Sequence record: PQ571288.1
Strand: one strand, 5' to 3'
Length of the DNA stretch: 44,405 nt
Source of the DNA: Escherichia phage EC3-1
Part shown: positions 22,467 through 23,240 of the stretch, piece by piece
Position numbering within the stretch: position 1 is the first letter of the stretch
Layout: every line of letters begins with the position of its first letter
The notes under the pieces: generated by a model
Seen by the model: only the letters and a program-made list of their open reading frames with translations
Database searches by the model: none
Told to the model about the DNA's origin: nothing
Translations under genes and position numbers: made by a program

Positions 22467-22818
22467 CGTTTCTACCCTCGAAAATAGCGTCTAAGCTCAT
22501 GATGATGTCAGATTCAAACATGCCTATATTCTGGCCTGAAACGGTGCCGTATGCCACTAAATCCGACCATCTTAACTGTTCACGTGGGTACATCTTGATG
22601 CCATCATCGTCCACTCGGCGGGTGAATTTGATTTCCTTGTACTTCTCGAAGGTGGTTAATAGCTCAGGGGGGCATTCTGGCCCGGTATCCTGCGTTGCTT
22701 CCGGCGCGTCTTGCATAACCCCCATAGCAATTAGCGCGGCTTTATGTCCGTCGGCAATGCTGTCAAACTCCCGCCGTTTGTGGCGGGTTATGAAGTCCCA
22801 ACGGGCAAACTGGAGCAA
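22459..22818 (-). CDS. Tail assembly chaperone, T-like reading frame (likely expressed by -1 frameshift from the upstream G-like gene)
   Basis: No ATG at the ORF start (opens at TTG); sits in the -1 frame relative to 22824..23240 and overlaps the tape measure start. Confidence 0.45.
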   Translation of the reverse strand: MLQFARWDFITRHKRREFDSIADGHKAALIAMGVMQDAPEATQDTGPECPPELLTTFEKYKEIKFTRRVDDDGIKMYPREQLRWSDLVAYGTVSGQNIGMFESDIIMSLDAIFEGRNDG

Positions 22819-22823
22819 CGCGT

Positions 22824-23240
22824 CTACTTTTCCTGCAATTGGTGAAGCTGTTCGTTGTGGAAAACAACAACGTGTTCAGCGAGGCGTTTATATTGTGAGA
22901 AAAGAGTGTTCAGGTTCTCTTTATTAAATTCATCGTCGAGACTCCAACCGTTAACCAGTTCAAGTGCTAACTGGCGGTTAAGGTCCGCCGCGGCGTCTTC
23001 CATCTTAATATTGTATTCCGAGAAATCTTTCAGTTCCTCGCATTTATCACGAAGCGGTTTCAATTTACCTAATGCCGCGCGGTACGCAAGTGTAAACGCC
23101 CTCATAGCTTTAACGGCAACGTCTGCCTCCGGTGAAACAACGTTCAGCCACTCCCCTGAATCGGTGCCGTCTTTCAGTGGTATTGGCATACGGGCGCCTT
23201 TTTCTGCCTCAGCTTCGTAATAAAAATCAGAAAGTTTCAT
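22824..23240 (-). CDS. Tail assembly chaperone (lambda G-like)
   Basis: 138-aa acidic protein directly upstream of the T-like frame and the tape measure gene. Confidence 0.55.
   Translation of the reverse strand: MKLSDFYYEAEAEKGARMPIPLKDGTDSGEWLNVVSPEADVAVKAMRAFTLAYRAALGKLKPLRDKCEELKDFSEYNIKMEDAAADLNRQLALELVNGWSLDDEFNKENLNTLFSQYKRLAEHVVVFHNEQLHQLQEK

Follow-up and report, generated by a model that had tools for sequence, protein, structure and literature searches.

The question raised by this locus of Escherichia phage EC3-1 is how the second of its two tail chaperone frames comes to be translated. In the window, by which we mean the whole stretch of 44,405 nucleotides analysed (record PQ571288.1), a G-like tail assembly chaperone gene on the minus strand (23240..22824; zero-frame product of 138 aa) ends in ...CAC CAA TTG CAG GAA AAG TAG, the last four codons lying at 22835..22824. 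It is followed by a T-like frame which the ORF finder lists from a TTG (22818..22459, minus strand, 119 aa) and whose first ATG lies 98 nt past the G stop. A sequence-only reading of the window had proposed that the two frames are joined at the end of G by a programmed -1 frameshift. The protein families matched, the comparison with relatives and the existing annotation support this proposal, and it is very probable that a lambda-style programmed -1 frameshift at G_GAA_AAG (22833..22827, minus strand), whose Glu and Lys codons are the last two sense codons of G, fuses G and T. Four results of the sequence comparison carry this conclusion: the relation of the two frames, the location of the shift, the absence of a separate T start in most relatives, and the coding of T from the site onwards.

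Modulo 3, the end coordinates of the T codons are 1 and those of the G codons 0, and therefore T is in the -1 frame relative to G, as the earlier reading had it. The same relation is found in all of the approximately 100 related loci, taken from GenBank phages and IMG/VR, which form 26 clusters at 90% nucleotide identity; these clusters share a phylogeny, and counts of conservation among them are not independent trials. The T frame is open from 22875 down to its TGA at 22461..22459 and is bounded on its 5' side by another TGA (22878..22876). It covers 52 nt of G, the G stop included, and the segment of G in which the -1 frame is open before the last bases of the shift site runs from 22875 to 22828 (minus strand). 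After the shift, the T-like part would extend over 22459..22827 (minus strand, 122 aa), with GTA (22827..22825) as its first codon. At its other end, the T stop lies inside the tape measure gene, whose ATG is at 22466..22464, in an overlap of 8 nt (ATGGCTGA). The T-like ORF had been said to overlap both of its neighbours; this stands for the tape measure gene and, when the open frame is considered, for G, but not for the ORF started at TTG, which begins 5 nt past the G stop and has no overlap with G.

The two products match known families of tail chaperones. G is recognized by Pfam PF08748 Phage_TAC_4 (E=2e-8, 34.9 bits, cut-off 21.1) and T by PF23812 Phage_TAC_18 (E=7.8e-18, 64.8 bits, cut-off 27); a sequence search of the PDB gave no significant relatives. 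Moreover, G aligns to positions 1-138 of phrog_15027, a 'tail assembly chaperone' profile of 259 positions (E=5.9e-50), and positions 138-259 are aligned by the -1 frame, starting at the Lys of the slip site. Since this profile spans G and T with the same junction, such fused products are already present in public data. The next gene (20130..22466, minus strand, 778 aa) has a partial match to Pfam TMP_3 and is called tape measure in relatives, and the tail tube (major tail) protein gene (25517..26692, minus strand) was identified by phrog_290 (E=5.6e-78) and by its homologue in phage fFiEco03, annotated 'tail tube protein'. On the minus strand the order is thus head closure, tail completion, tail terminator, tail tube, an opposite-strand cassette, G, T and tape measure. 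This order and the chaperone family matches agree with the view, already put forward from the sequence, that the locus has the G/GT-type arrangement typical of siphoviruses. The region is 96-98% identical to the E. coli siphophages vB_EcoS_XY1, fFiEco03 and Shashou, and the window belongs to the genus Kagunavirus, subfamily Guernseyvirinae.

As in lambda-type pairs, the G and T ORFs have the tube gene on one side and the tape measure gene on the other, but a 2.3-kb cassette on the opposite strand interrupts the tail module after the tube gene and before G. This cassette (23418..25488, plus strand) codes for a protein of superinfection immunity with 63 aa, a 376-aa DNA repair exonuclease/metallophosphoesterase, an HNH endonuclease of 156 aa and a further protein of 76 aa, and a comparable opposite-strand cassette is present at the same position in relatives. 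A predicted protein of 165 aa (P0005), from a 1745-nt contig of a JGI metagenome, combines the N-terminal ~96 residues of the exonuclease/metallophosphoesterase with a portion of the T domain (VDDDGIKMYPREQLRWSDLVAY...). The window encodes the two halves on opposite strands, the exonuclease/metallophosphoesterase starting from 23647 on the plus strand, and a chimeric assembly or a rearranged variant is the probable source of P0005.

A second junction in the same tail module also drew our attention. The head-closure gene (Hc1-like, 137 aa; 27907..27494) and the tail-completion gene (Neck1-like, 131 aa; 27497..27102) meet at 27490..27510 (minus strand) in the sequence AGA AAA TGA G, an ATGA overlap in which the downstream gene is in the -1 frame and A_AAA comes right before the stop. 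The homologous pair is labelled 'putative frameshift product' in fFiEco03, and phrog_17193 (250 positions) covers both proteins end to end. Since the tail-completion gene has an ATG of its own and a GGTGAG Shine-Dalgarno sequence, ordinary translational coupling may suffice there.

Comparison with homologous loci in relatives had been suggested as a check of the proposed frameshift, and its outcome is favourable: A_AAG (22830..22827 in the window, minus strand) is found at the end of G in 26 of 26 clusters, a stop codon follows it directly in 25, the exception (L071) reading AAG TTA TAG, and 24 have no start codon for T near the site. The complete heptamer is G_GAA_AAG in 18 clusters, A_AAA_AAG in three, C/G_GCA_AAG in four and G_TCA_AAG in one (Serratia phage Eta). 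The earlier remark that the slippery site of the window is not canonical is correct, as G_GAA_AAG does not fit X_XXY_YYZ (XXX is GGA). Canonical heptamers at the homologous position are confined to some relatives, with A_AAA_AAG being carried by distant ones (L075, L077, L097, L099-L103). There is also one natural single-base switch inside a G_GAA_AAG cluster: the locus L086 (IMGVR_UViG_2974654489_000001) reads G_GGA_AAG at about locus position 701 (TTA CAG GGA AAG TAG), which changes Glu to Gly in G.

The terminal Lys codon is AAG in all 26 clusters, as opposed to 36% (95/264) of the other Lys codons of the same G genes. The base before GAA is G in 18 out of 18 clusters, where it is the last base of seven different codons (CAG, ATG, CTG, TTG, TCG, AAG and GCG) that specify Gln, Met, Leu, Ser, Lys or Ala. 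Ahead of a penultimate AAA codon stands an A, so that the heptamer is the dnaX-type A_AAA_AAG. This covariation matches the prediction of re-pairing by the upstream tRNA. In the genome of a relative with 97% identity, in-frame A_AAG has a frequency of 2.7 per 1000 codons, and only G, among 74 CDS, ends in A_AAG followed by a stop. Judging from these counts, the slip-site motif is more than chance.

The T protein could instead be made separately, with no fusion, from the TTG at 22816..22818 (minus strand), either by independent initiation or by reinitiation of ribosomes that have terminated at the G stop, 5 nt before it, with AGGA at 22834..22831 as Shine-Dalgarno sequence. Such an origin is favoured by the closeness of this TTG to the G stop and by the AGGA that precedes it by 12 nt, and also by the annotation: the records of XY1, Golestan and Shashou, like most in GenBank, give T as a separate CDS from this TTG, at which annotators of the CPT marked a ribosome binding site. 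However, TTG is found at +5 in only two of the 26 clusters, that of the window and one of Jerseyvirus; it encodes a Leu that is invariant in the T domain and for which most relatives use CTG. Elsewhere, in 24 clusters, one must go 26-320 nt past the G stop to reach an ATG, GTG or TTG in the T frame (167-320 nt for the first NTG in the Cornellvirus-like lineages), and starting there would remove from 9 to more than 100 conserved residues. The AGGA is not conserved either, its place being taken in relatives by TTG GAA, ATG GAA or TCG TCA, and a spacing of 12 nt between Shine-Dalgarno and start is long.

The conservation of the T frame upstream of the TTG argues against this start as well. The residues that it would leave out (K-V-x-A) are conserved, with synonymous variation at the Ala (GCG/GCC), and K1, V2, A4 and L5 of T are invariant in an alignment of 11 sequences (A2). 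Conservation of the T-frame protein starts at the slip site, with the pattern K-V-x-A-L-Y-x-F-A-R-W...F-D-S-I-A-x-G-H, and over the first 29 codons of the T frame past the site the nucleotide entropy is 0.57, 0.66 and 1.33 for the first, second and third codon positions. A clear coding signature of the T frame thus starts at the slip site, and the alignments indicate that in most relatives there is no independent start for T. A T made separately and without any fusion is accordingly improbable, and initiation at TTG is unlikely to be the sole route to T, although some initiation could take place in the window's own clade.

If ribosomes change frame before the end of G, where do they do it? The overlap in which the -1 frame is open varies from 7 to ~200 nt across relatives, so only its 3' end can matter. 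The shortest distances from the upstream -1-frame stop to the AAG codon are 7 nt (L097), 13 nt (L079) and 16 nt (L077), which leaves only the final two or three codons of G for the shift. A change of frame at this same place might also arise during transcription, with the RNA polymerase adding one A in the A-run. This would yield an identical fusion protein, and the site does contain an A-run, of four residues in the window and six in the relatives with A_AAA_AAG. Productive transcriptional slippage, however, generally needs about seven or more identical bases, and the run of only four A in the window, and three in the relatives with GCA_AAG or TCA_AAG, makes it unlikely. Moreover, the conserved G after the run and the covarying base before GAA or AAA fit tRNA re-pairing and not polymerase slippage, so that we regard a transcriptional origin as highly improbable. 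A shift elsewhere in the 52-nt overlap, as at U_UUC (22863..22860, in GTT GTT GTT TTC), where the junction would read ...VVF-PQRTASPIAGKVDALL, is hardly credible even if this tetramer lies within the open -1 frame of the window and is the second most shift-prone in E. coli (PMC4066793), because the motif is not conserved, the overlap has just 7-19 nt in many clusters, and in 97%-identical relatives (L002, L003, L006-L008) a -1-frame TGA (AAT GAA) between it and the G stop closes this route.

Both sides of G_GAA_AAG were inspected for elements that could stimulate frameshifting. The 87 nt downstream of the site in the window fold with -26.6 kcal/mol, a z-score of -1.55 against shuffled sequences, and RNAalifold on 10 diverse relatives gave 7 pairs and -1.98 kcal/mol, with no conserved downstream RNA structure. 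A GC hairpin, CCCGCC-ACAAAC-GGCGGG (22787..22770, minus strand), with a perfect 6-bp stem, is located 39 nt past the slip site within the T coding region; the closest relatives share it, in Jerseyvirus L13 it is disrupted, and the remaining relatives lack it. On the basis of these values and of the poor conservation of the hairpin, a downstream stimulatory structure was rejected. In the aligned junctions of the relatives there was no upstream Shine-Dalgarno-like stimulator at a stimulatory distance, and the AGGA overlapping the site was discarded for this role because it is not conserved.

The zero-frame stop, TAG (22824..22826, minus strand) directly 3' of the shift site, is the sole other conserved flanking element. 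With the TAG that L071 has one codon later included, TAG is used at this place by 19 clusters, TAA by seven and TGA by none; stop usage in the genome of a 97%-identical relative is TGA 37, TAA 31 and TAG 6. Part of this bias may stem from the overlapping codons of the T frame (GTA and a following codon with G or A as its first base). In seven clusters the codon of the third T residue starts with A, and TGA would be compatible with the T protein too, yet TAA is used. The bias also resembles that of a 'shifty stop' site, in which a stop codon in the A site promotes slippage in the P site: slow termination may give the peptidyl-tRNA-Lys time to slip. It is possible, and we suggest it only tentatively, that the conserved element is not a heptamer and consists of A_AAG with an adjacent UAG or UAA, never UGA. 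This would be a termination-coupled -1 frameshift, in which peptidyl-tRNA-Lys slips while awaiting the release factor, mostly RF1. If so, the ratio of G to GT, and with it tail assembly, would depend on the RF1 activity or the amber-suppressor status of the host and not on RNA structure.

Whatever the contribution of the stop, the events of a -1 frameshift at G_GAA_AAG can be proposed as follows. A small fraction of the ribosomes translating G would slip by -1 at its last sense codon, on G_GAA_AAG followed by UAG (22833..22824), the adjacent stop possibly acting as a pause or stimulator. The tRNA-Lys would re-pair from AAG to AAA, which is cognate, and the tRNA-Glu from GAA to GGA with G:C, G.U and A:U pairs, which is near-cognate. 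These ribosomes would then read GUA (Val) and continue in the -1 frame to 22459, giving a G-T fusion of 260 aa in which ...LHQLQEK is followed by VDALLQFARW... (junction peptide ...HQLQEKVDALLQF...), and those that do not slip would stop at UAG and release the 138-aa G. We infer from the comparison that the fusion is actually made, in some ratio to G, and that it functions in assembly. In lambda-type pairs the fusion is reportedly made at a low fixed ratio to G, needed for tail assembly and absent from virions. By analogy with lambda gpG and gpGT, G and the G part of GT would coat the tape measure protein, and the T part would recruit the tail tube protein, tethering it to the chaperone-coated tape measure; neither G nor GT would be expected in the virion.

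The annotation of this locus differs among the phages that carry it. The records of fFiEco03 (97% identical over the region) and Shemara contain a joined 'tail assembly chaperone frameshift product', and the genome announcement of Shemara does not mention the frameshift. The genome paper of Shashou states 'no canonical slippery sequence' (PMC6776780), and the annotation of this phage cites a proposal made for the Jerseyvirinae. Experimental detection of a GT fusion was not found in the literature for this phage or any of the Guernseyvirinae. The exact sequence of the predicted 260-aa fusion was absent from the protein collection looked up, and a search of homologous proteins for natural in-frame G-T fusions gave five matches, all of them G-only or fragments. 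The 90%-identity protein cluster that contains the exact G of the window (378 members) includes proteins of 119 aa beside the 138-aa G; 119 aa is the length of the T ORF started at TTG, the comparison being one of length only, and the mixture would be explained if annotated G-T fusions bridge both.

The recoding of G and GT is here a standard event, at a near-canonical site conserved throughout the Guernseyvirinae and already annotated in some relatives and in a PHROG family, and it leaves the current understanding of tail assembly or recoding unchanged. What the present analysis adds is modest: the exact place of the shift, and a set of naturally occurring alleles of the slippery motif next to a stop. 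For annotation, the consequence is that this phage and most of its ~500 sequenced relatives have the second chaperone ORF deposited as a separate CDS or 'hypothetical protein' from a fortuitous TTG, GTG or ATG, when it should be given as a joined -1 frameshift product with its junction at Lys138. Moreover, the series found at this one position (G_GAA_AAG, G_GGA_AAG, A_AAA_AAG and N_GCA/TCA_AAG), with the stop adjacent and no evident RNA stimulator, could be used to measure the contributions of P-site re-pairing and of the adjacent stop to -1 frameshifting in E. coli.

The system closest in organization is that of lambda gpG and gpGT, in which ribosomes shift by -1 at G_GGA_AAG (Levin et al. 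1993; Xu, Hendrix and Duda 2004, 2013 and 2014, summarised in PMC5009743). As in lambda, two overlapping frames immediately precede the tape measure gene, the second one is in the -1 frame and lacks a conserved start of its own, and a conserved slippery sequence ending in A_AAG is located within the overlap near the end of G. The heptamer of the window is one base off that of lambda, which L086 has exactly. However, the P-site codon of the window re-pairs only near-cognately, with a G.U pair in the middle of GAA on GGA, no sense codon separates the shift from the stop, and the tube gene is kept apart from G by the opposite-strand cassette. The G and T of the window also belong to other families, Phage_TAC_4 and Phage_TAC_18, with no direct sequence similarity to lambda G and T being found. 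A canonical X_XXY_YYZ, which the window does not have, is typical of the lambda-type family but not obligatory in it.

Among other recoding sites, E. coli dnaX has the same heptamer as the distant relatives, A_AAA_AAG, and differs in this from the window. The dnaX site is assisted by a strong upstream Shine-Dalgarno sequence and a downstream hairpin, and shifts with an efficiency of about 50-80%; as the window has neither of these elements, a low efficiency of shifting is expected. With the 'shifty stop' sites the locus shares the zero-frame stop immediately 3' of the slippery codon. PRFect (PMC10885494) describes, in annotated phage chaperone frameshifts, an empirical 'twofour' motif, XXYYYY, and a G.U re-pairing argument for GGGGGAA. 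The GGAAAA of the window fits this motif, and the same G.U argument applies to GAA on GGA, but the basis of the motif is the statistics of annotated frameshifts of actinophages, another phage group, and not a tested mechanism. The site G_GAA_AAG is not dealt with by Bock et al. 2019 (PMC6787027). The tetramer A_AAG is the most shift-prone in E. coli, reaching 5.6% with a strong pseudoknot, and tetramers with no stimulator, A_AAG included, average ~0.15%, barely above background in reporter assays (PMC4066793). Natural -1 sites on CGA_AAG are known in Bacillus subtilis cdd (A_CGA_AAG) and IS1222 (G_CGA_AAG) (PMC5009743; PMC4066793). Unlike the stimulated sites of this type, that of the window has no conserved Shine-Dalgarno-like or structured stimulator, and its only conserved flank is the zero-frame stop. 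As in cdd and IS1222, re-pairing of a single tRNA-Lys from AAG to AAA would be essential, with the upstream codon re-pairing poorly or not at all. The five clusters with GCA or TCA are purely of this hexamer type and the window only partly so; since its GAA can re-pair near-cognately to GGA, the site of the window is intermediate between hexamer and heptamer.
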